Shown piece by piece: positions 13,642-27,486 of a stretch of DNA of 64,000 bases. The stretch spans positions 64,033 through 128,032 of the forward strand of contig CAZREB010000014.1 in the NCBI GenBank assembly GCA_964599095.1, written 5' to 3'. Source of the stretch: an uncultured Bordetella sp. Its GTDB lineage: Bacteria > Pseudomonadota > Gammaproteobacteria > Burkholderiales > SG8-39. The notes below the pieces were generated by a model. That model did no database searches, was not told the DNA's origin, and saw nothing but the letters and a program-made list of their open reading frames with translations. The first letter of the stretch is position 1; each line of letters begins with the position of its first letter. A program made the translations under genes and the position numbers.

Positions 13642-14564
13642 CGCCGGTCGTATTCGCACTGCCCGGCAACGAGGCCATGGCCGATGCGCTTGCTGCCCGC
13701 CTGGCCGCCGAGCGGGGCGCTTGCACAGTACGGCGCTTTCCGGACGACGAATCCTATGTGCGGGTCGAAACCGCGGTTTCCCGTCGCGACGCGATCCTGG
13801 TATGCACGCTCGACAGGCCGGATGGTCGAATCGCCCAGCTCCTGCTCCTGGCATCGGCTGCGAGGGAGTCGGGCGCCATGCGGGTGGGGTTGGTTGCGCC
13901 GTATCTCGCGTACATGCGCCAGGACGCCCGGTTCTCTCCGGGGGAGTGCGTGAGCGCGAAGGTGTTTGCGCGATGGATCGGGTCGCACTTCGACTGGCTG
14001 GTCACCGTCGATCCGCATCTGCATCGCTTCGCAAACCTGGTGGAGCTATACCCGATCCCGACGCGCGCCGCCCATGCCGCACCGGCGATCGCCGCGTGGC
14101 TGTGTGAAAACGTCCCCGCGCCAGTGCTGGTCGGCCCGGACATGGAGAGCGCGCAATGGGTTGAAGAGGTAGCGCGCCTTGCCGGTGCGCCGAGCATCGT
14201 GCTCGCCAAGCGGCGCCGTGGCGACCGCGAGGTGGAGGTGTCGATCCCGGACCCGGCAATGCTCGTTGGCCGCACCCCGGTTTTGGTCGACGATATTGTC
14301 TCGACGGCGCACACGATGATCGCGGCGGTGCGCCACCTGCGCGTGGCAGGCCTCGCGCCACCGGTTTGCATTGCGGTGCATGGAATCTTTGCCGGCGATG
14401 CGCTCCATGCGCTGCAGGCCGCCGGCGCTGGCCGCGTCGTGAGTTGCGACACCATTCCTCACTCAACGAACGCCATTGCCCTCGACGAGGTTCTTTGGTC
14501 TTGCATTGCGGACCTGCTTGCCAACGGCCCGCCTCCGAACCTTGACGACAAGGCGACGGGGTGA
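13638..14564 (+). CDS. ribose-phosphate pyrophosphokinase (PRPP synthetase) family protein
   Basis: RFPDDESYVR, APYLAYMRQD, VDPHLH and PRPP-binding loop VLVDDIVSTAHTM. The GTG start overlaps the upstream stop (GTGA). Confidence 0.85.
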   Translation: MTPVVFALPGNEAMADALAARLAAERGACTVRRFPDDESYVRVETAVSRRDAILVCTLDRPDGRIAQLLLLASAARESGAMRVGLVAPYLAYMRQDARFSPGECVSAKVFARWIGSHFDWLVTVDPHLHRFANLVELYPIPTRAAHAAPAIAAWLCENVPAPVLVGPDMESAQWVEEVARLAGAPSIVLAKRRRGDREVEVSIPDPAMLVGRTPVLVDDIVSTAHTMIAAVRHLRVAGLAPPVCIAVHGIFAGDALHALQAAGAGRVVSCDTIPHSTNAIALDEVLWSCIADLLANGPPPNLDDKATG

Positions 14565-15358
14565 GTGCGCGCGAGGCGATGCGCGTCGTCGTTGCCGCGA
14601 TAGGGATCGGCGGCTTGCTCTGGGCACAGGACACGATGGCGGCCACGATCCCGCCGGTGCACGTGCCCGTGGACTGGATTCTCGAGTGGCTGTCGCACGT
14701 CCTGGTGGGCGCGATCGCCGCGATTGCCGGAGTGCTTGCACACCGCGCCTGGTCCCGGCGCCGGTGGCGGCCCGCGCCGGCCGCGGTGACGGTCGAGTCA
14801 ATCCTGGCGGTCGACTTGGTGAATTCGACCTGGCTGGCGACGCATCATGGGGAAGAACTGGCGATGCGCGCGCGCAACGTCCTCGAGCGGCGTGCGCTTG
14901 CGGCAGGCAATTCGAATGGCGTTTCCTTCGTGGAGAACACGGGAGACGGGTGCATGATGGCGTTTCCGTCGGTGATCGCGGCCACGCGCGCGGCTGGCGA
15001 ATTGCTGCTGGGGCTGCGAAGCCGCCCGCCTGAGATGGCGCCGGGCCCGGGGCTCGAAGTCCGGTCTGCGATTACCTATGGGCAGATCCTGCTCGATTCG
15101 CGCGGGTCACGCCACGGTGCGGTGATTAACGAGGCCTTTCGGCTCATGAGCGTCGCGGGAGATGCATTCGTGGATGTCGGCGGGGAAGAACGCCTGGCCG
15201 AAATCCCCGACCGCAACCGGATTTTCCTCAGCGAGGACGCGGCCAATGAAATCGGATCGACGCAATTCAAATTGCGGAAAGTCGGTGTTTGCCGCCTCAA
15301 GGGGTTCAGCGGATTCCATCGGGTGTACGAGTTGCTGTGGACTCATGAAACACGCTAA
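14561..15358 (+). CDS. membrane-anchored class III nucleotidyl cyclase
   Basis: Two N-terminal hydrophobic segments. The cyclase homology domain has metal Asp residues in LAVDLVNST and ENTGDGCMMAF, and the N..R pair in VINEAFRL. Glu/Asn replace the canonical adenine-specifying Lys (VENTGDG). The GTG start overlaps the upstream stop. Confidence 0.7.
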   Translation: MSAREAMRVVVAAIGIGGLLWAQDTMAATIPPVHVPVDWILEWLSHVLVGAIAAIAGVLAHRAWSRRRWRPAPAAVTVESILAVDLVNSTWLATHHGEELAMRARNVLERRALAAGNSNGVSFVENTGDGCMMAFPSVIAATRAAGELLLGLRSRPPEMAPGPGLEVRSAITYGQILLDSRGSRHGAVINEAFRLMSVAGDAFVDVGGEERLAEIPDRNRIFLSEDAANEIGSTQFKLRKVGVCRLKGFSGFHRVYELLWTHETR

Positions 15359-15427
15359 GTTCGGGTTAATGGCCGCCGAGAAGACATTGGGCCGCCTTGC
15401 CTGTCCGTATCGCGCAGGCGGCAATTC

Positions 15428-15829
15428 ATGAAGACGCCGTTGGCGATTATATTGGTCGCCACGATGGTTGCTGCTGCCGGGACTGGAGGTTACCTTGTCG
15501 CCACGCGCGAATTGCGTTCGCCTGACGTTCCGGAGGCGCACCAAAAGAAATCAGGCGAACCGGGCGCCGCGCTTCACAAGGGGCGAGGCGTGGTCACAGG
15601 GGTAAGCGCTCCAGACGGCTATCTCGAGCTCAAGCACGAGCCGATTCCTTCGATGAAATGGGACGTGATGCAGACGGGATTTGCGGTCACGGACACGAAG
15701 CTGCTGGAAGGGCTGAAGAAAGGCGACATCGTCGAGTTCGAGATGCGCGGCCTGCCGAACAAGGACGGCGACTTCGTGATCGAGAAGGTGGCACCGCTTA
15801 CCGGCGGGAATGCGCGCAGTACGCCTTGA
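15428..15829 (+). CDS. CusF/SilF-like periplasmic Cu(I)/Ag(I)-binding protein
   Basis: GRGVVTGVSAPDGYLELKHEPIPSMKWDVMQTGFAVTDTKLLEGLKKGDIVEFEM follows the CusF fold pattern (G-x-V-x-x-I... H-x-P-I-x-x-L-x-W-P-x-M-T-M-x-F). Confidence 0.7.
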   Translation: MKTPLAIILVATMVAAAGTGGYLVATRELRSPDVPEAHQKKSGEPGAALHKGRGVVTGVSAPDGYLELKHEPIPSMKWDVMQTGFAVTDTKLLEGLKKGDIVEFEMRGLPNKDGDFVIEKVAPLTGGNARSTP

Positions 15830-19743: not shown

Positions 19744-21051
19744 ATGTTTCGTGCATTGCGCGCATCCCCGATGCGCTGCGCCGGCATTTTCCGGCGATCG
19801 GGACTATTGATCTTCCTTTTCGCGTCGCAGGCCGCTGCGCAAACGCTGACGCTGGAGGCGGCTATGCGGATAGCCGCAGCGGCCAACCCGGCGCTGCGCG
19901 CAGCGGCTGCCGAAATGTACGCGGCGCAAGGTCAGGCGACCGAGAGCGGCTACGCGCTTTGGAACAATCCTTCGGTATCGCTTGACGGAACGCGCCGTGC
20001 GCTGCCGCAGGCGGGCGCACCCGAGCAGCGCGTGCGCGAGTGGGGTTTCGGTCTCGCGCAGACTTTCGAAGTTGCCGGCCAGCAGGGATTTCGGCGACAA
20101 GCCGCGAACGCCGAGTTGGAGGCGGTGCGGGCGAACGTGGCTGAATTTCGCAGCCAGCTCGCCGCGGACGTGGCCGACCGGTTCATCCGGCTGCTCGCAG
20201 TGCAGTTGCGAATCGCCGCCGAACACGAAAACCTGAGGCTCGTCGAGGAGGCGGCGGCCGCGATCGGCAAACGCGTGGCGGCGGGAGAAACGAGCAAGCT
20301 GCAAGGCAACGTGTCGAGCGTCGAAGCCGAGCGCGCGCGCAACCAGCTTGCGCAGCTCGATGAAGCGATGATCCAGGCGCGCGCCGACCTGGCCTCGCTT
20401 CTGCAGCTTCCGCCGAATGCGCATCCGGTGGCCGCGGGTTCCCTGACGAGCGCGGCGCGTTACGGGCGCGAGTCGCTGCTCGAATCGGCGCGGCGCCGCC
20501 GTGTGCTCGCCGTGCTCGCACTGCGGGAGAACGCCGCACAAAACCGGCTGGCGCTCGAGCGTGCCGCAGCCAGGCCCGACGTGACCCTTGGCGTCAATAT
20601 GGGCCGCGAAGGGTTGCCCGGTTTGCGCGAAAGCACGCTGGGCGTGGCGGTATCGGTGCCGCTGCCGCTGTTTCGCAAAAACGAGTCGGGCATCGGACGG
20701 GCGCTCACAGGCCTGGAACAGGCGCGGGTCGAGCGCGAGCGCGTGACGCGGGAAGTGCGCGCCGCCGTCCTCGCCCAGTGGGACCGCGTCGAGAACCTGC
20801 GCGCCCGCGAGGCGCGCCTTGCGGCGAAGGTGCTCCCGCTGCTGGAGGACAACCTGCGCCTGTCCAAGCGGGCATTCGAGGAAGGCGAAATCGGGCTGTC
20901 CGACCTGCTGCTCGTCAACCGGCAGGTCGTGGACGCCCGCAGGGAGATGCTCGAGGCCCAGACCGACCTGCGGCTCGCGCAAGTCGCGCTCGAACGCTCC
21001 GCCGGCTGGGATTTCGAGTCTGCCGGAACTAAAAAGGATGGGACGCAATGA
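19744..21051 (+). CDS. czcC: outer-membrane efflux protein, CzcC/TolC family
   Basis: 435 aa with a two-repeat coiled-coil OEP pattern. It overlaps the downstream adaptor gene (ATGA) in the czcCBA order. Confidence 0.8.
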   Translation: MFRALRASPMRCAGIFRRSGLLIFLFASQAAAQTLTLEAAMRIAAAANPALRAAAAEMYAAQGQATESGYALWNNPSVSLDGTRRALPQAGAPEQRVREWGFGLAQTFEVAGQQGFRRQAANAELEAVRANVAEFRSQLAADVADRFIRLLAVQLRIAAEHENLRLVEEAAAAIGKRVAAGETSKLQGNVSSVEAERARNQLAQLDEAMIQARADLASLLQLPPNAHPVAAGSLTSAARYGRESLLESARRRRVLAVLALRENAAQNRLALERAAARPDVTLGVNMGREGLPGLRESTLGVAVSVPLPLFRKNESGIGRALTGLEQARVERERVTREVRAAVLAQWDRVENLRAREARLAAKVLPLLEDNLRLSKRAFEEGEIGLSDLLLVNRQVVDARREMLEAQTDLRLAQVALERSAGWDFESAGTKKDGTQ

Positions 21052-22217
21052 AAATCGAACGATGGCTCGTGCTCGCCGGCGTGACGGCTCTACTTTTCGG
21101 CTGCGGCAAGACGCCTTCGCCCGCGGCGGCGCCTGATCCGGTCCCAGCCGCCAAGGCCGACATCCGCGGGTCCGAAGAAATCCTCAAACTGTCGGCCGAA
21201 GAGGTCGGGCGCGCCGGAATCCGAATCGAGATCCTAGCCGAGACACGGATTCGGGATCAGCTTGCAGTCACGGCCACGGTGCGCGCGAACGAAGATCGCT
21301 ACGCGCACGTCGCGCCGCGCGTGCCGGGCCGGCTCGTGCGCGTGTACGCGAAGCTGGGCGACACGGTCAAGGCCGGCCAGGCGCTGGCGTTGCTCGACAG
21401 CGTGGAGGTCGGCGAATCCCACGCCGCATATCTGCAGGCTCTCAGCGAAGCGAACGTGGCGCGCGCGGCGTTCGATCGCGCGGAGCGTTTGCATCGTGAG
21501 GAGGTCATCCCCGCCAAAGAGTACCAGCGCACCCGTGCCGACAACGAAAAGGCCCAGGCAGCGCTGCGCGCGGCGGCCGACCGGCTGCGGCTTCTAGGTA
21601 CGCTGCCCGGCGGCGAGATCGGCGAGCCTGCGGTTTCGACCTTTCCGCTGTCGGCGCCGAACGCCGGCACGGTCGTCGAGAAGCACGCGGTCCTGGGTGA
21701 GCTTGCCAAGCCCGATGCTTCGCTCTTCACGATCGCGGACCTTTCGGTAGTGTGGGTCGAAGCGGACGTTGCCGAAAAGGATCTCGCGCGCGTTACGCTT
21801 GGGGCGGATGCGGCGATCAGCGTCGGTGCTTATCCCGGCGAATCTTTCAAGGGCCGGGTGGCATATATCGGCCAGTTGCTCGACAAGGACACCCGTACGG
21901 CACGCTCACGCATCGAGGTGGCGAACCCCGCGCGCCGGCTGTTGCCGGGCATGTTCGCCGGCGCCGTCATTTACGGCGGCGAGAGCGCGAAAGCGCTCGC
22001 GGTGCCCGAGTCGGCGCTCACGCTGATCCAGGGAATGCCGGTAGTGTTCGTCGAAGAGGCCGGAGGATTCGAAGCGCGCCCGGTGGAGATCGGCGAACGA
22101 ACGGGTGGGAGGGCTATCGTCACGTCGGGCCTGAAGGCTGGCGAGCGCGTGGTGGTCGCGGGCGCCTACGCGCTCAAGGCGCGCAAGCTCAAATCGCAAA
22201 TCGGCGATTCGCACTGA
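21048..22217 (+). CDS. czcB: RND efflux periplasmic adaptor (membrane fusion protein), CzcB family
   Basis: Lipoprotein-like N-terminus (LLFGC), hairpin/lipoyl/beta-barrel pattern, and position between the OEP and RND pump genes. Confidence 0.85.
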   Translation: MKIERWLVLAGVTALLFGCGKTPSPAAAPDPVPAAKADIRGSEEILKLSAEEVGRAGIRIEILAETRIRDQLAVTATVRANEDRYAHVAPRVPGRLVRVYAKLGDTVKAGQALALLDSVEVGESHAAYLQALSEANVARAAFDRAERLHREEVIPAKEYQRTRADNEKAQAALRAAADRLRLLGTLPGGEIGEPAVSTFPLSAPNAGTVVEKHAVLGELAKPDASLFTIADLSVVWVEADVAEKDLARVTLGADAAISVGAYPGESFKGRVAYIGQLLDKDTRTARSRIEVANPARRLLPGMFAGAVIYGGESAKALAVPESALTLIQGMPVVFVEEAGGFEARPVEIGERTGGRAIVTSGLKAGERVVVAGAYALKARKLKSQIGDSH

Positions 22218-22226
22218 GGAGCGGAC

Positions 22227-25200
22227 ATGCTGAATGCCATCGTGTCCGCTTCGCTTCGATACAGGGTCTTGGTGCTGGTTGCGTTCGCAGGCATCGTCCT
22301 CCTCGGGGTGCGTGCGCTAGGGACGGTGCCGCTCGATGCCTACCCGGATGTGACGCCCAACCAGGTCACCGTCTACACCGAGTCGCCCGGCCTCGCCCCC
22401 GAGGACGTCGAGCGTTTGCTCACGACGCCGATCGAGACGTCGCTCGCGGGCCTGCCGGGCGTGGAGGTGATCCGCTCTGTGTCCCTCTTCGGCCTCTCGT
22501 ACGTGGCCGTCTATTTCAAGGACGAAGTGGATATCTGGTTCGCGCGGCGCCTCGTGGGCGAGCGGCTCGTGGAGGCGAAAGCGCGCTTGCCCGAAGGCTA
22601 TGGCGAGCCCGCGCTCGGGCCCAACAGCTCGGGCCTGGGCCAGGTGTTCTGGTACACGCTCGAATCGACAGATCCTAAGCTCGACGCGATGGGGCTGCGC
22701 ACGCTGCACGACTGGACCGTGCGGCTCGCGCTTCGCACCGCGCCCGGTGTCGACGACGTGACGTCCTGGGGTGGTTACGAAAAGCAGTTCCAGGTGCAGA
22801 TCGACCCCACTCTCCTGGTCAAGTACGCCCTTTCATTCAAGGAGGTGATCGAGGCGCTCGCCGCGAACAACCGCCAGGTTGGCGGCCAGTTCCTCGACGC
22901 GGGGGCAGAACAGTATCTGGTCCGCGGCCTCGGCCTGGTGAGCAGCACGCGGGATATCGGCAACATCGTCGTGGCCGCGCGCGAGGGGGTGCCCATCTAC
23001 GTGCGCGACGTCGCCCGGGTGGTCGAAGGACCCGCGCCGCGATTCGGGGCGATCACGCGAGACGGCAAGGAAGTCACGCTGGGAATCGTGCTCGCCCGCA
23101 TCGGGGAGAATGCGAAGAACGTCGCGGAAGCGGTCAAGAAGAAGCTCGAGACCGTGAAACAGGCGCTGCCGAAATCGGTGTCGATCAATCCGGTCTACGA
23201 CCGCACGGAGATCGTTCAGAAGGCGCTCGACACGTCGAGCCGAACCCTCGTCGAGGGCGCGATCCTCGTCGCGGTGGTCCTGTACCTGTTTCTCGGCGAA
23301 CTGCGTTCCGCAGCGGTGGTCGTCGCAGCCTTGCCGCTGGCGATGCTGATCGCCTTCATCCTGATGCAGTACTTCGGATTCTCGGCCAACCTCATGTCGC
23401 TCGCCGGCCTGGCCATCGGCATAGGCATGATGGTGGACGGGGCCGTGGTGGTCGTGGAGAACGCGTTCCGCCACCTGTCACAGCCGCACCACGGCGCGTC
23501 GCGCGCGGACGTCGTCGGGCGCGCCGCGCGCGAGGTGGCGCAGCCCGTGGTGTTCGCGATCCTGATCATCATCGTCGTGTTCCTGCCGCTCTTTTCGCTG
23601 ACCGGACTCGAAGGCAAGCTCTTCAAGCCCATGGCGTACACGATCTCGTTCGCCATGGCCGGCTCGCTCGTCCTGAGCCTTACACTGGTACCTGTCCTGT
23701 CTTCGCTGATGCTCAAGGCCGGCCCCGAAGTGGAACCCTGGCTCCTGCGGACGGCCAAAAGAACCTACGCGCCGATGCTCGACTGGGGGTTGGGCCATCG
23801 CAAGACGGTGGCGGCAGCCGCACTCGCGTTGCTCGGCGTCTCGCTCGCGGTATTCCCTTTCCTCGGAAAGGAGTTCATGCCTACGCTGCAGGAAGGCGAG
23901 ATCATGTTCCGCGTGACCGGGATTCCCGCCTCTTCGCTCGATGAGTCGGTCCGGCTTTCGCGCCAGTTGAACGACGTCCTGAAGAAAAAATTCCCACAGG
24001 TCAGATCGGTACTCGCCAACATCGGCCGCGCGGAGCGCGCGGAGATCGAAGGCGTCCACTACATGGAACTCCTCGTTTCGGTCGCGCCCGAGGCCGATTG
24101 GCCCCGGCGCATGGCAATGTCCGAACTTGCGCGCGAAATGCAGGAGGCGCTCGAGAGGGACGCGCCTGGCGTCGTGTTTTCGGCCACGCAGCCGATCCAG
24201 ATGCGCGTGGAGGAACTGATCTCCGGCGTGCGAGCGACGCTCGCGCTCAAGGTGTACGGACCGGAGCTGGCGACACTTGATCGCCTCGCGGCGCGATTGA
24301 AGCAGTCGTTGTCGAAGGTCGAGGGCGTTTCCGACCTTTCCGTCGAAGCCAATCAGGGCAAGCCGCAGATTGTCATCCGGGTCGATCGCGATGCGGCCGC
24401 CAGGCTGGGCGTCAGCGTCGACGAAGTGCTCGAACTCGTCCAGTCCGGAATCGGCGGCAAGCCCGTGACCGCCCTGATCGACGGCACGCGCCGGTTCGAC
24501 ATTGCGGTGCGGTTCCAGGAGGAATTCCGCGGCAGCATCGGAGCCATTCGCAATCTTCCGGTCCGCACCCGCGCAGGTGCGCTGGTGCCGCTTTCGCGCC
24601 TGGCAAGCGTCGAAGCCGACGAGGGCTATACGTTCGTTCGGCGGGAGGCGCTGCAGCGGTACGCCGTCATCCAGATGGACGTGCGGGGCCGGGACGTGGA
24701 CGGATTCGTGCGCGAGGCCGCGGCCAGGCTGAAGGCGGATGTTCCTCTGCCCGAGGGGTACTGGATCGAATGGGGCGGCGCGTTCGAGAACCAGCAGCGC
24801 GCGCTCGCCCGACTGGCGCTCATCGTGCCGGTGACGATCGGCCTGATCTTCCTGCTGCTCTACACGGCGTTCAATTCGCTCGTCTACGCCGGGCTGATCA
24901 TCGCGAACGTGCCGTTCGCCATCATCGGCGGCGTGTTCGCCCTGGCCGCCGGCGGGTTCTACGTGTCGGTCCCCTCGGCGATCGGCTTCATCGCGGTGTT
25001 CGGAGTGGCGATGCTCAACGGAATCGTTTTGGTTTCGTTCATCCACGAACAGCGCGTTTCGCGCGACCTCGCGCTGCGCGAAGCCGTGCGCGAAGGGACG
25101 TTGCTGCGCCTCAGGCCGGTGCTGATGACCGCGAGCGTGGCGATCCTGGGCCTGCTCCCGATGCTGTTTGCAGGCGGCGTCGGCGCCGAAACGCAGCGGC

Positions 25201-25328
25201 CCCTGGCGGCGGTCGTGATCGGCGGACTGATCTCCTCGACCGCGCTTACGCTTCTCGTGCTTCCGGTGATGTACGATTGGGTGGAAGAGTGGAGGCAAAA
25301 GCGTTCCGCCCGGAACGCCGGTGATTGA
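22227..25328 (+). CDS. czcA: heavy-metal efflux RND pump, CzcA/CusA (HME-RND) family
   Basis: 1033 aa with 12 TM and two large loops. GIGMMVDGAVVVVENAF is the HME-RND TM4 signature. Confidence 0.9.
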   Translation: MLNAIVSASLRYRVLVLVAFAGIVLLGVRALGTVPLDAYPDVTPNQVTVYTESPGLAPEDVERLLTTPIETSLAGLPGVEVIRSVSLFGLSYVAVYFKDEVDIWFARRLVGERLVEAKARLPEGYGEPALGPNSSGLGQVFWYTLESTDPKLDAMGLRTLHDWTVRLALRTAPGVDDVTSWGGYEKQFQVQIDPTLLVKYALSFKEVIEALAANNRQVGGQFLDAGAEQYLVRGLGLVSSTRDIGNIVVAAREGVPIYVRDVARVVEGPAPRFGAITRDGKEVTLGIVLARIGENAKNVAEAVKKKLETVKQALPKSVSINPVYDRTEIVQKALDTSSRTLVEGAILVAVVLYLFLGELRSAAVVVAALPLAMLIAFILMQYFGFSANLMSLAGLAIGIGMMVDGAVVVVENAFRHLSQPHHGASRADVVGRAAREVAQPVVFAILIIIVVFLPLFSLTGLEGKLFKPMAYTISFAMAGSLVLSLTLVPVLSSLMLKAGPEVEPWLLRTAKRTYAPMLDWGLGHRKTVAAAALALLGVSLAVFPFLGKEFMPTLQEGEIMFRVTGIPASSLDESVRLSRQLNDVLKKKFPQVRSVLANIGRAERAEIEGVHYMELLVSVAPEADWPRRMAMSELAREMQEALERDAPGVVFSATQPIQMRVEELISGVRATLALKVYGPELATLDRLAARLKQSLSKVEGVSDLSVEANQGKPQIVIRVDRDAAARLGVSVDEVLELVQSGIGGKPVTALIDGTRRFDIAVRFQEEFRGSIGAIRNLPVRTRAGALVPLSRLASVEADEGYTFVRREALQRYAVIQMDVRGRDVDGFVREAAARLKADVPLPEGYWIEWGGAFENQQRALARLALIVPVTIGLIFLLLYTAFNSLVYAGLIIANVPFAIIGGVFALAAGGFYVSVPSAIGFIAVFGVAMLNGIVLVSFIHEQRVSRDLALREAVREGTLLRLRPVLMTASVAILGLLPMLFAGGVGAETQRPLAAVVIGGLISSTALTLLVLPVMYDWVEEWRQKRSARNAGD

Positions 25329-25418: not shown

Positions 25419-26165
25419 ATGAGCGGCGAGGCGCGCGAACTCGACCTGGCGCTGATGATGGCCGACCTGTGCGGCTACACCGCGCTCACCGAAACCCATG
25501 GCGCGCTGCAGGCGTCCGAGACCGTGTTGCGATTCGTGCGCCTCGTCGAGGCCAGCCTCGAACCGGGCGTGCGGATCGTGGACTGCATCGGCGACGCGGT
25601 CTTTTGCGCCGGGAAGGACGCGCTTGCTGTCGTGCGCACCGCGTTGCGACTGGTCAACGCCGTGCAGCACGAGTCCGGTTTTCCGCGGATCAGCACCGGC
25701 ATCCACTCAGGGGCCGTAGTCGAGCGCGAGGGGAGGCTGTTCGGCGCGCCGATCAACTTGACCGCCCGTCTCACTTCGCTGGCCGAGGGCGACCAGATCC
25801 TGTGTACCGAGCCGATAGTGCGCGCGCTCGCGGCGGTCGAAGGCGTCGGCTGCCGGGCGATCGGCGAGCAGCACTTCAGGAACGTCGCCCATCCGGTGCC
25901 GATCTTCGAACTGGTGCCGGTCCAAACGAGCCGGGCGGGATCCAGCGTCGATCCGGTCTGCCGGATGCAGGTGGGGGTCGAAACCGCGGCGGCGACGGTC
26001 GATCATGCAGGGGTGTCCTACTACTTCTGTTCGGAGCACTGCGCGCACGCGTTCTCGGATGCGCCGGGACTGTACGTCGGAGTGAAGGATGCCGAAGGTA
26101 CCCGCCCGGGTGGACCGGCCGATCAATCGGCGGGGGATTCTTCGCAGCAGCCTCGACGGGATTGA
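25419..26165 (+). CDS. class III nucleotidyl cyclase fused to a C-terminal TRASH/YHS metal-binding domain
   Basis: Minimal cyclase domain (MMADLCGYT, VDCIGDAVF, PINLTARL), then DPVCRMQV-x-YYFCSEHC. This gives C-x22-C-x3-C, the TRASH/YHS spacing. Confidence 0.75.
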   Translation: MSGEARELDLALMMADLCGYTALTETHGALQASETVLRFVRLVEASLEPGVRIVDCIGDAVFCAGKDALAVVRTALRLVNAVQHESGFPRISTGIHSGAVVEREGRLFGAPINLTARLTSLAEGDQILCTEPIVRALAAVEGVGCRAIGEQHFRNVAHPVPIFELVPVQTSRAGSSVDPVCRMQVGVETAAATVDHAGVSYYFCSEHCAHAFSDAPGLYVGVKDAEGTRPGGPADQSAGDSSQQPRRD

Positions 26166-26350
26166 ATTGGCGGGCATGGCACTGAACCATAGCTGCAGAA
26201 GACGCAGCAGTCGCCGGGCCTGGGTTTGAGCCGGGTCGCGCATCCTCCGCAGACATGAAAGAAAAGGCAGGCGTCGGTCGGCATTTTCTCGGTGCTTTGG
26301 TAGCCGCAACTCGGGCAGGTCAGTGTCGATTCGAGGATGGTTTGATTCAT
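26123..26350 (-). CDS. GDCCVxC-domain protein (mer-associated small Cys-rich protein)
   Basis: 75 aa with CPSCG, CGGC and the GDCCVFCSYG motif. The start overlaps the merP stop (ATGA). Confidence 0.7.
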   Translation of the reverse strand: MNQTILESTLTCPSCGYQSTEKMPTDACLFFHVCGGCATRLKPRPGDCCVFCSYGSVPCPPIQSRRGCCEESPAD

Positions 26351-26625
26351 TGCAGCGGCTTTGGCGCAGAAGGATAGCCGGCGTTTTCGGTCGCGCGCGT
26401 GAGCTGCTCCAGGGAGGTCTTGGTGTCATCGAATGTGACGACGGCGACCGGCGGCTCGAGCGTTACTTTCGCGTCGATCACGCCGGCGACCTTGCGCAGC
26501 GCAAGACGCACGGTAAGGGGGCAGGTCGAGCAGTTCATCCCTTTTACGTCGAGCTGGACCGTACGCTGCCCGGCCTGCGCAGGGAACGCGGCCAAAGCGA
26601 GGCTAAGAAAAAAGGCGCGGACCAT
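26347..26625 (-). CDS. merP: periplasmic mercury-binding protein MerP
   Basis: Signal peptide followed by an HMA fold with GMNCSTCP (the MerP GMxCxxC motif). Confidence 0.85.
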   Translation of the reverse strand: MVRAFFLSLALAAFPAQAGQRTVQLDVKGMNCSTCPLTVRLALRKVAGVIDAKVTLEPPVAVVTFDDTKTSLEQLTRATENAGYPSAPKPLQ

Positions 26626-26989
26626 AGAACGGGAAAAGCACAATGGCCTTGGCCGCGACAAGCGCGACCCAGAATGCAATGCGCTGGCGCCGCAGCACCG
26701 GCGCGGTTGCGCAGGCGGCGTCGGGGGTGCAGCGGCGCGGCGCCACGTACAGGCGCCAAAAAGCAAAGCCAAATGCGCCGAGCGCGAGGACAAGGAATAC
26801 CGGATAAAGAGGCTCGAGCGCGCGCAATCCGCTCGCCCAGGCGCCCCCGAGGCCCAGCGCCACGAGGACCAGCGGCCCTACACAGCAGGCCGACGCCCCG
26901 AGCGCCGCACCCATTCCGGCGAGGATCGGCGCAAGCGCGGAACGGGGTGCGTCCGGATCGGTCGCGGACACGGCGGGGTAAGAGTCCAT
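26603..26989 (-). CDS. merT: mercuric ion transporter MerT
   Basis: First TM carries the vicinal Cys pair GASACCVGPLVLVALG. A second Cys pair region (RRCTPDAAC) lies on the cytoplasmic loop. Three TM in total. Confidence 0.85.
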   Translation of the reverse strand: MDSYPAVSATDPDAPRSALAPILAGMGAALGASACCVGPLVLVALGLGGAWASGLRALEPLYPVFLVLALGAFGFAFWRLYVAPRRCTPDAACATAPVLRRQRIAFWVALVAAKAIVLFPFYGPRLFS

Positions 26990-26995
26990 GTGAAG

Positions 26996-27027
26996 ATGAT
27001 ACAGTCCGTACCCAGCTACGGAGTCAA
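26996..27027 (-). promoter_or_regulatory. mer operator/promoter (PmerT), divergent from merR
   Basis: The minus strand reads TTGACT-CCGTAgctgggTACGGActg-TATCAT. The dyad TCCGTA-N6-TACGGA between -35 and -10, with a 19-20 bp spacer, closely resembles the Tn501/Tn21 merO. Confidence 0.75.
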
Positions 27028-27039
27028 GGCGATTTTCGA

Positions 27040-27486
27040 ATGGAACCTCTGACCATCGGCGCTTTGGCCAAACAGGCCGGGGTGCACGTCGAAACCATCC
27101 GCTACTACCAGCGGCGCGGGTTGCTCGACGAGCCGGCCCGCCCGGCCGGCGGCATTCGCAGATACGGTGCGGACACTGCCGCGCGGATCGGCTTCATCAA
27201 GCGCGCGCAGGACATCGGCTTTTCGCTCGACGAGATCAAGGACCTCCTCAGGCTGGAACGGACCCCGGATTGCCGCGACGCGCGAAACATCGCCGAACGC
27301 AAGCTCTCGACCGTGCAGACGCGGATCGCGGACCTGCGTCGCGTGCGTCGCGTTCTCGCGACGCTGATCGCCGAATGCGACGCCGGGGGCGAGCGCCGCT
27401 GTCCGATCATCGATTGCCTCGCGGATACCAGCACGCAATCTCCGCCGGCGAACAAGACCAAGGTGCCGGTCAGACGCAATCGATGA
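27040..27486 (+). CDS. merR: Hg(II)-responsive transcriptional regulator MerR
   Basis: LTIGALAKQAGVHVETIRYYQRRGLL plus the three Hg-ligand Cys positions (TPDCRD; ECDAGGERRCPIID). Only the last 148 codons of ORF 26323-27486 are used. Confidence 0.9.
   Translation: MEPLTIGALAKQAGVHVETIRYYQRRGLLDEPARPAGGIRRYGADTAARIGFIKRAQDIGFSLDEIKDLLRLERTPDCRDARNIAERKLSTVQTRIADLRRVRRVLATLIAECDAGGERRCPIIDCLADTSTQSPPANKTKVPVRRNR

Follow-up and report, generated by a model that had tools for sequence, protein, structure and literature searches.

A predicted class IIIc nucleotidyl cyclase with a C-terminal YHS domain, from a proteobacterial clade with a remodelled base pocket and linkage to copper/silver efflux operons

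About 26 "AC-YHS" proteins have been described, all of class IIIc, in which a linker of 8–11 residues joins one cyclase homology domain (CHD) to a single YHS domain at the C terminus (Linder 2015, PMC4626032). Among them MpAC from Mycobacterium phlei (233 residues) needs Mn2+, or Cu2+ plus Mg2+; with Mg2+, 1–10 µM Cu2+ turns on its synthesis of cyclic AMP (cAMP), for which the YHS domain is required, and Zn, Fe, Cr, Co and Ni fail to activate it (PMC4626032). All six canonical adenylyl cyclase residues are present in MpAC, and D178, C181, C204 and C208 are its proposed metal ligands (PMC4626032). Here we analyse a gene of similar design in a 64,000-nucleotide stretch of DNA from an uncultured Bordetella sp. 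(hereafter the window, positions 64033–128032 of the source genome's contig C14). The encoded window protein (248 residues) resembles MpAC in its single CHD with the short arm of class IIIc, short linker and C-terminal YHS domain, and in the identical numbering of the proposed ligands, D178, C181, C204 and C208; relatives of both proteins lie in metal-resistance clusters. It differs from MpAC at the base-specifying positions, which are Lys/Asp (K/D) in the cAMP-forming enzyme and Asp55/Arg106 in the window protein, falls in a separate tree clade and is only about 30–40% identical to actinobacterial K/D members. The window clade is, moreover, tied to cusCBA(F) in Proteobacteria, whereas the MpAC type is tied to actinobacterial or rhizobial plasmids. 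The novelty implied for the fusion in the original prediction is not upheld, since the architecture has been published and characterised (PMC4626032); it is the pocket-remodelled proteobacterial clade that differs from characterised MpAC. Taken whole, including a lean towards cyclic GMP (cGMP) as product, our reading of the window protein as a soluble cytoplasmic class IIIc cyclase gated by a C-terminal YHS soft-metal sensor is somewhat probable.

Both domains score above their Pfam cut-offs: the YHS domain at residues 177–221 with 46.5 bits (cut-off 30.3; positions 2–45 of the 47 in profile PF04945), and the cyclase catalytic domain at residues 10–141 with 23.9 bits (cut-off 21.9; PF00211, Guanylate_cyc). 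In a phmmer comparison with the PDB, the catalytic domain of Rv1264, the pH-sensing class IIIc adenylyl cyclase of M. tuberculosis (PDB 1y10, 1y11), matches the window protein with an E value of 3.5e-17. The AlphaFold2 model (mean predicted local distance difference test score, pLDDT, 91.2; predicted template modelling score, pTM, 0.85) has as its best Foldseek match the active state of Rv1264 (1y11; E 1.2e-14, root-mean-square deviation 1.8 Å over 164 columns), and of its 225 PDB matches at E ≤ 1e-3 the highest-ranking are without exception class III cyclases, with Ma1120 following Rv1264. As judged by predicted fold and motifs, the window protein is a class III nucleotidyl cyclase in which the CHD precedes one C-terminal YHS domain, in agreement with the original prediction of a cyclase domain followed by a TRASH/YHS domain; the C-x22-C-x3-C spacing read there is found as C181-x22-C204-x3-C208, with D178 ahead of C181. 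The segment from GIHxG to FG (ungapped, residues 98–113) equals in length that of Rv1264, the class IIIc prototype, and this shortened dimerisation arm assigns the window protein by sequence to class IIIc. Linker length is typical of the family, and domain spacing equals the family median. Residues 222–248, with pLDDT of ~50–62, are missing from most homologues, which mostly stop at about residue 220–235, and the 43-nucleotide overlap with the convergent GDCCVxC open reading frame (ORF), which had been noted earlier and is exact by the ORF coordinates, is confined to non-conserved disordered tails. A mis-called stop was set aside as an explanation of this overlap, homologue P0002 having the same tail, and a chance ORF in GC-rich DNA is ruled out by hundreds of full-length homologues with conserved motifs.

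The alignment with Rv1264 is free of gaps over residues 11–113 (numbering offset +206) and retains four of the six canonical adenylyl cyclase catalytic residues, both base-specifying ones being different (Table 1); alignments with 3mr7 (positions 55 and 106) and Ma1120 (position 106) support the same equivalences. Rv1264, the best match of the catalytic domain in sequence and in structure, shares with the window protein this ungapped stretch, the arm length and the metal, Asn and Arg residues, and is unlike it in carrying an N-terminal autoinhibitory pH-sensor domain, in lacking a YHS domain, and in having K261, D312 and R298 where the window protein has D55, R106 and S92. The two metal-ligand Asp residues reported in the original prediction are thus located as D16 and D59; its statement that the base-specifying Lys is replaced also stands (Asp55 in VDCIGD), and is incomplete in that the partner Asp is changed as well, to Arg106. 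The canonical adenine pair, Lys with Asp (or Thr), is replaced by Asp55/Arg106 in the window protein. In guanylyl cyclases Glu takes the place of the Lys and the second residue varies (C, S, T, H, A or G), the contact of the Glu with guanine N1/N2 being the main determinant (PMC4215837, PMC7384201). Like the guanylate cyclases Cya2 (Glu-Gly), RhGC and soluble guanylate cyclase (Glu-Cys) and the KDA-to-EGY mutant of Ma1120, the window protein has an acidic residue for the Lys and a non-acidic, hydrogen-bond-donor-capable residue for the Asp, and its CHD-YHS sister clades, with Glu plus Ser, His, Gly, Ala, Arg or Gln, also resemble these enzymes. Measured against the canonical guanylyl pair (Glu with Cys, Ser, Gly, His, Thr or Ala), however, the window clade has Asp or Asn for the Glu, and Arg, Lys or Gln for the Cys, Ser or Gly of those guanylate cyclases, combinations that are uncharacterised.

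Table 1. Features of the cyclase gene and its surroundings; coordinates are those of the window unless prefixed with C14.
Feature	Coordinates	Strand	Basis or remark
Whole CHD-YHS nucleotidyl cyclase gene	25419-26165	+	ORF, ATG start, 248 residues; 688 homologues of same length and architecture
Class IIIc CHD, residues ~6-168	25434-25922	+	Rv1264 alignment, AlphaFold2 model, Foldseek, conservation
Codon D16, catalytic metal (Rv1264 D222)	25464-25466	+	Rv1264 alignment
Codon D55, base-specifying, changed (Rv1264 K261)	25581-25583	+	Rv1264 alignment
Codon D59, catalytic metal (Rv1264 D265)	25593-25595	+	Rv1264 alignment
Codon R106, base-specifying, changed (Rv1264 D312)	25734-25736	+	Rv1264 alignment
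Codon N113, transition state (Rv1264 N319)	25755-25757	+	Rv1264 alignment
Codon R117, transition state (Rv1264 R323)	25767-25769	+	Rv1264 alignment
CHD-to-YHS linker, residues 169-176	25923-25946	+	Columns poorly conserved; pLDDT dips to 87-90
YHS/TRASH-type metal-binding domain, residues 177-221	25947-26081	+	Pfam PF04945
Codon D178, putative ligand	25950-25952	+	
Codon C181, putative ligand	25959-25961	+	
Codon C204, putative ligand	26028-26030	+	
Codon C208, putative ligand	26040-26042	+	
C-terminal tail, residues 222-248, and stop	26082-26165	+	Non-conserved, predicted disordered
c7, membrane-anchored divergent cyclase homologue	14561-15358	+	Glu/Ser pair, D-D-N-R intact
cusF	15419-15829	+	Pfam CusF_Ec
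Outer-membrane factor	19744-21051	+	Pfam OEP
Membrane-fusion protein	21048-22217	+	Pfam HlyD_D23
RND pump	22227-25328	+	Pfam ACR_tran; TIGR00914, CusA/CzcA family
GDCCVxC	26123-26350	-	NCBIfam NF041374, 101 bits
merP	about 26347-26625	-	NCBIfam MerP, 98.8 bits
merT	26603-26989	-	NCBIfam MerT, 90 bits
merR	27040-27486	+	TIGR02051, 153.9 bits
c8	C14:61290-61568		Just upstream of the window

Examination of the best 120 clusters among the 688 homologue matches shows that the altered pocket is general in the closest relatives. These clusters are 59–80% identical to the window protein and 219–258 residues long, except P0061 (195 residues) and P0075 (428 residues), and their named members are called "adenylate cyclase", "class 3 adenylate cyclase" or "YHS domain-containing protein"; the ten largest hold 9 to 34 member sequences each, in metagenomes. 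The pocket pair is D/R in 92 clusters, N/R in 18, N/K in 6, S/R in 2, N/Q in 2 and K/D in none, and two co-varying subtypes are seen, D55-S92-R106-C18 (82 clusters, the window protein included) and N55-R92-R/K/Q106-S18 (25 clusters). D16, D59, N113, R117, D178, C181, C204 and C208 are each kept in 119–120 of the 120 clusters, and the D-C-C-C set of the YHS domain is invariant in 134–139 of 139 representatives of the wider family. This conservation of the D-D-N-R and D-C-C-C sets argues for purifying selection, and the strictness of D-D-N-R argues for catalysis. Three further cysteines occur in the CHD: C18 (codon 25470–25472), two residues past the metal-binding Asp16, in 87 of the 120 clusters; C63 (codon 25605–25607), four residues past Asp59, in 117, with Ile, Leu or Val in other clades; and C129 (codon 25803–25805) in all 120. 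Together these cysteines may make up a second site, for a metal or for redox chemistry, close to the active centre.

An exhaustive HMMER search for the wider family over 1.84 billion representatives returned 89 matches at E ≤ 1e-30, in which the window clade is a single 50%-identity cluster, the next match being 47% identical. For a residue census, 139 of the 150 best-scoring 50%-identity cluster representatives were aligned. Their pockets are K/D in 93 (taxa: Actinomycetota and Myxococcota), E/x in 32 (Desulfobacterales, Rokubacteria, Binatia and Bacteroidota), where x is S, R, H, K, G, Q, E, N, A or L, and D/x or N/x in 12 (metagenome-assembled genomes, MAGs, of Beta- and Gammaproteobacteria). 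In a maximum-likelihood tree a 40-row non-canonical clade (29 E/x, 9 D/x or N/x) is separated from a 94-row clade (88 K/D) with a support of 98 in the Shimodaira–Hasegawa-like approximate likelihood ratio test (SH-aLRT), and the 7-row window clade (support 100) lies inside the former. Since Glu for Lys with a variable second residue is the pattern of guanylyl cyclases, the E/x branch carries a guanylate-cyclase signature, and by its sequence the window clade nests in this guanylate-cyclase-like (Glu-x) branch of the CHD-YHS family.

The gene is present in 5 of 17 same-genus genomes, 1 of 7 from other genera of the family and none of 16 from the rest of the order, at 59–71% identity; it is accessory and island-borne, and its distribution is patchy and divergent. 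The CHD-YHS design is horizontally mobile. Plasmid carriage of the window clade itself was rejected, PLSDB having K/D-type copies only, at ≤40% identity. Two loci, L009 in a Thermoanaerobaculaceae MAG and L011 in a Nitrosotalea (archaeal) MAG, have the same gene order and spacing (Crp, type IIIA-like P-type ATPase, CHD-YHS), with four flanking ORFs equal in length and identical where sequence was printed, which suggests mis-binning or very recent transfer.

The genomic surroundings of the close relatives point to copper and silver. Neighbourhoods were rebuilt by ORF clustering and custom hidden Markov models for a close-clade set of 20 loci from GTDB genomes and for more distant taxa, where the procedure is less sensitive and linkage values are lower bounds. 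The architecture sought in other genomes recurs throughout the 688 homologues. As to linkage with heavy-metal RND loci, upstream flank of 3.5 kb or more is available at 16 close-clade loci (15 GTDB loci and the window), and in 9 of them a same-strand heavy-metal RND pump ends ≤3 kb upstream of the cyclase gene. The pumps of the relatives form two groups that are 54–57% identical to each other and 36–38% identical to the window's pump; that of locus L013 is orthologous to CusA (1480 bits to E. coli CusA vs 544 to ZneA), and those at the remaining relatives' loci are 54–91% identical to it. Between cusA and the cyclase gene lie cusF (Pfam CusF_Ec, at several loci) and two further genes, c7 and c8. 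The conserved partner of the CHD-YHS gene is a cusCBA(F) copper/silver operon, usually upstream. The close-clade loci also repeatedly contain GDCCVxC (6 loci), MerR-type regulators, a CDF transporter, multicopper oxidase, DUF411, DUF302 and patatin; in distant clades multicopper oxidase is found in 13 of 60 loci, there are recurrent P1B ATPases, HMA proteins and AraC regulators, and the K/D copy on an M. gilvum plasmid sits amid ArsR/SmtB, P-type ATPase and ars genes. Histidine kinases with ETR1_N, the ethylene-receptor-type membrane domain with a copper cofactor, are encoded with a response regulator near CHD-YHS at L015:10832-12169, L013:10766-12082 and L070:1859-3322.

In the window the heavy-metal RND efflux operon (19744–25328, plus strand) ends 90 nucleotides before the cyclase gene, and no match to a promoter or plus-strand terminator lies within this gap. 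Its pump scores 691 bits to ZneA and 638 to CusA, so that its metal class is ambiguous. The transmembrane helix 4 (TM4) region of the pump reads GIGMMVDGAVVVVEN, and the first Asp of DFG, which we take to be the CzcA-type motif, is missing from it. The mer-like module (26123–27486) lacks merA, and a CadR/PbrR regulator and a ZntA-like ATPase (a pbr-like module) are also found in the window. The position assigned to the gene in the original prediction, between czcA and the mer genes, is thus correct, whereas the name czcA is approximate and the arrangement is peculiar to this genome. The window belongs to a metal-resistance island of ~90 kb (about 4.5–91 kb of contig C14) that contains two cusCBA operons, several P1B ATPases, multicopper oxidase, DUF411 and patatin along with pbr-like, czc-like, mer-like and ars modules, and that borders genes which, from their translations alone, we take to be housekeeping tpiA, secG and nuoA.

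The gene c7 has no Pfam match, and aligns with the CHD-YHS family in hhalign with a probability of 97.6% (E 3.8e-12); the alignment indicates an N-terminal membrane anchor, an intact D-D-N-R set and a Glu/Ser, guanylate-cyclase-like pocket. In relatives it lies between cusA and either cusF or the CHD-YHS gene (L006:6218-7420, L023:6698-7585, L017:4034-5224, L012:661-1362), and it adjoins the CHD-YHS gene in L006, L012, L017, L021, L023, G011 and G017. It is present in 3 of 7 CHD-YHS-positive related genomes; CHD-YHS occurs without it in the other 4 and in most loci. The second gene, c8, encodes ~90 residues with a conserved Cys/His-rich motif (HGxHCxCR...FCR...CDH...LPPxDPxD), has no family match and stands directly upstream of the CHD-YHS gene in five loci (L012:2064-2348, L016:7710-7961, L023:7685-7987, L017:5209-5520, L070:7733-7999); its product may be a small metal-binding partner. 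In the source genome the c7–cusF pair (14561–15829) lies ~10 kb upstream of the CHD-YHS gene, and the two cusCBA operons lie further upstream on contig C14. Because c7–cusF and c8 are displaced, with pbr-like and czc-like modules intervening, the module cusCBA-[c7]-cusF-[c8]-CHD-YHS appears to be split here, and the placement between czcA and mer appears to be a local rearrangement and not the rule.

Sequence and the analogy with MpAC together make it likely that the window protein is a metal-switched nucleotidyl cyclase. D16 and D59 would bind Mg or Mn, and N113 and R117 would stabilise the transition state; if the behaviour of MpAC is transferable, the head-to-tail homodimer would be almost inactive with Mg2+, and a soft metal on the YHS domain would shift the dimer to its active state, so that the cyclic-nucleotide level would report the cytoplasmic metal load. 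The direct metal control that the original prediction drew from the fusion gains support, by analogy, from the published biochemistry of the collinear M. phlei enzyme. The natural ligand would most likely be Cu(I), or Ag(I), because the gene is the last of cusCBA(F) operons in relatives and multicopper oxidases and copper ATPases recur family-wide. With Asp55/Arg106 in place of Lys/Asp and a position in the Glu-x branch, the product would probably not be formed via canonical adenine recognition: an acceptor at 55 and a donor at 106 would fit guanine (N1-H/N2-H2 and O6), not the canonical adenine contacts. On the chemistry of this pair and on the branch, conversion of GTP to cGMP is slightly favoured over conversion of ATP to cAMP; the preference for GTP is itself tentative, at rather less than even confidence, and ATP as substrate with cAMP as product is a possibility that we regard as somewhat doubtful.

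Proteobacterial cGMP signalling exists, since XC_0250 of Xanthomonas campestris, which like the window protein is a bacterial cyclase of class III and has a non-canonical pocket, makes cGMP (An et al. 2013, PMC3770947). It is unlike the window protein in having TPR repeats and no Asn/Arg pair or metal sensor, and it has a linked cGMP receptor, XC_0249 (PMC3770947), of which a counterpart was not found here. Crp-family genes neighbour CHD-YHS in L006, L007, L009 and L011, and their use as evidence for a receptor was downgraded: four of five regulators lack the Glu/Arg of the phosphate cassette that binds cyclic nucleoside monophosphates (cNMPs), and a Crp-family gene of that kind is absent from the window's contig. 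None neighbours the cyclase gene in this genome, in which a Crp homologue lies on another contig (C6:75137-75838). In the Crp/Fnr regulators L006:11932-12597, L007:12195-12881, L009:51-839 and L011:3744-4532, Tyr replaces the cNMP-binding Arg, and two of the four have a Cys-rich loop; these regulators may bind something besides a cyclic nucleotide.

Several points weigh against a copper-gated cyclase with a lean towards cGMP. The Pfam cyclase score is barely over its threshold. The local context is not copper-specific, as a non-Cus RND pump lies upstream and mer-type genes face the cyclase gene. The cassette Glu/Arg is kept in just one of the five neighbouring Crp-family regulators (L007:14187-14903), so that the evidence for a receptor is weak. 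As to the product, the residue at 55 is Asp and not the Glu of guanylate cyclases, and the second residues listed for known guanylate cyclases do not include Arg. Among mycobacterial enzymes, Rv1900c (Asn/His) and Rv0386 (Gln/Asn) function mainly as adenylyl cyclases despite their changed pairs. The pair alone cannot give the product, since XC_0250 has yet another pocket and even lacks the Asn/Arg pair (PMC3770947). The study of MpAC did not include Ag, Hg or Cd (PMC4626032).

The alternative to which we give most weight, while considering it doubtful, is a copper-activated adenylyl cyclase like MpAC, in which Asp55/Arg106 accepts ATP and the cAMP is read by ordinary Crp-type regulators. The agreement with MpAC in architecture, length and ligand numbering, the "adenylate cyclase" names of the relatives, the adenylyl cyclases that are its nearest structural neighbours and the Crp-family genes near four of the loci all fit such an enzyme, and non-canonical mycobacterial enzymes stay adenylyl cyclases. 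In class III, specificity is determined in the course of catalysis, and the residue pair does not strictly predict it (PMC7384201). The pocket speaks otherwise: neither of the adenine-binding residues survives in any of the best 120 clusters, an acidic side chain in place of the Lys is unable to act as a donor to adenine N1, the window clade lies in the Glu-x branch outside the K/D branch, and in Ma1120 the swap of K/D for E/x lowers adenylyl and raises guanylyl activity (PMC4215837). A product that is neither cAMP nor cGMP, with the long Arg106 filling the pocket and selecting a pyrimidine or other nucleotide to give cCMP, cUMP or another non-canonical product, is the least probable of the readings considered. 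Asp/Asn55 with Arg/Lys/Gln106 is indeed no described purine-specific pair, the co-varying D-S-R and N-R-R/K/Q subtypes suggest a re-engineered site, and cyclase-fold pyrimidine cyclases exist in Pycsar defence systems; the gene, however, lies outside any defence-system context, a sequence link to Pycsar cyclases was not seen (no comparison aimed at Pycsar was run), and the sister Glu-x clades bear the standard guanylate-cyclase signature.

Two further alternatives concern the metal and the autonomy of the enzyme. That the sensor in this organism answers Hg(II), Cd(II), Zn(II) or Pb(II), not Cu or Ag, seems unlikely, although the pump is slightly nearer ZneA than CusA, MerR, MerT, MerP and GDCCVxC as well as CadR/PbrR and a ZntA-like ATPase are encoded close by, GDCCVxC, MerR and CDF genes recur in 6–7 related loci, and a site of one Asp and three Cys should by its chemistry accommodate Hg, Cd and Zn. 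Against this, the gene's conserved, presumably ancestral place is downstream of cusCBA and cusF, the order in the window looks like a rearrangement that split a c7-cusF...CHD-YHS module, and MpAC is not activated by Zn2+. A protein that does not act alone, being either a pseudo-cyclase or metal-binding adaptor, or a partner of c7 (14561–15358) in a heterodimer that gives c7 a cytoplasmic metal input, is quite improbable. In its favour, c7 is a true CHD homologue that adjoins the CHD-YHS gene in the seven cases listed above, class III cyclases are dimeric with heterodimers known, and the base pocket is odd. Yet the full metal/Asn/Arg set is present in both proteins, whereas in obligate heterodimers complementary halves are usually lost; most loci, and 4 of the 7 related genomes, have CHD-YHS and no c7, the strict D-D-N-R conservation of CHD-YHS argues for catalysis, and MpAC alone is active.

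In the searchable literature we found no paper on YHS cyclases besides Linder 2015, no guanylate cyclase with a YHS domain and no paper on GDCCVxC. Three features appear to be undescribed in it: the proteobacterial clade with a remodelled Asp/Arg (or Asn with Arg, Lys or Gln) base pocket, the placement of the window clade in the guanylate-cyclase-like branch, and the integration in cus operons beside a second, membrane-bound Glu/Ser cyclase homologue. As a speculative extension, which we hold to be possible and no better than doubtful, betaproteobacterial Cu/Ag efflux operons would carry a hard-wired cGMP (or other non-cAMP) module, in which a YHS-gated Asp/Arg cyclase, often with a membrane Glu/Ser cyclase and CusF, converts the cytoplasmic and periplasmic Cu/Ag load into cGMP. 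If true, this would be a metal-to-cGMP pathway of a kind not described in bacteria.

Bacterial metal homeostasis is usually ascribed to metal-binding transcription factors and two-component systems. The precedent of MpAC is that a YHS domain can make a cyclase answer copper directly, and the CHD-YHS design emerges here as common, horizontally mobile, built into cus operons in Proteobacteria and diversified at the residues that choose the nucleotide. If the product is cAMP, the gene simply adds one more ordinary enzyme to the MpAC family. If instead the Asp/Arg and Glu-x forms make cGMP, the very few bacterial cGMP pathways would gain a physiological trigger in copper/silver stress, and the naturally occurring pocket variants of the family would form a series in which to study how class III cyclases select purines.

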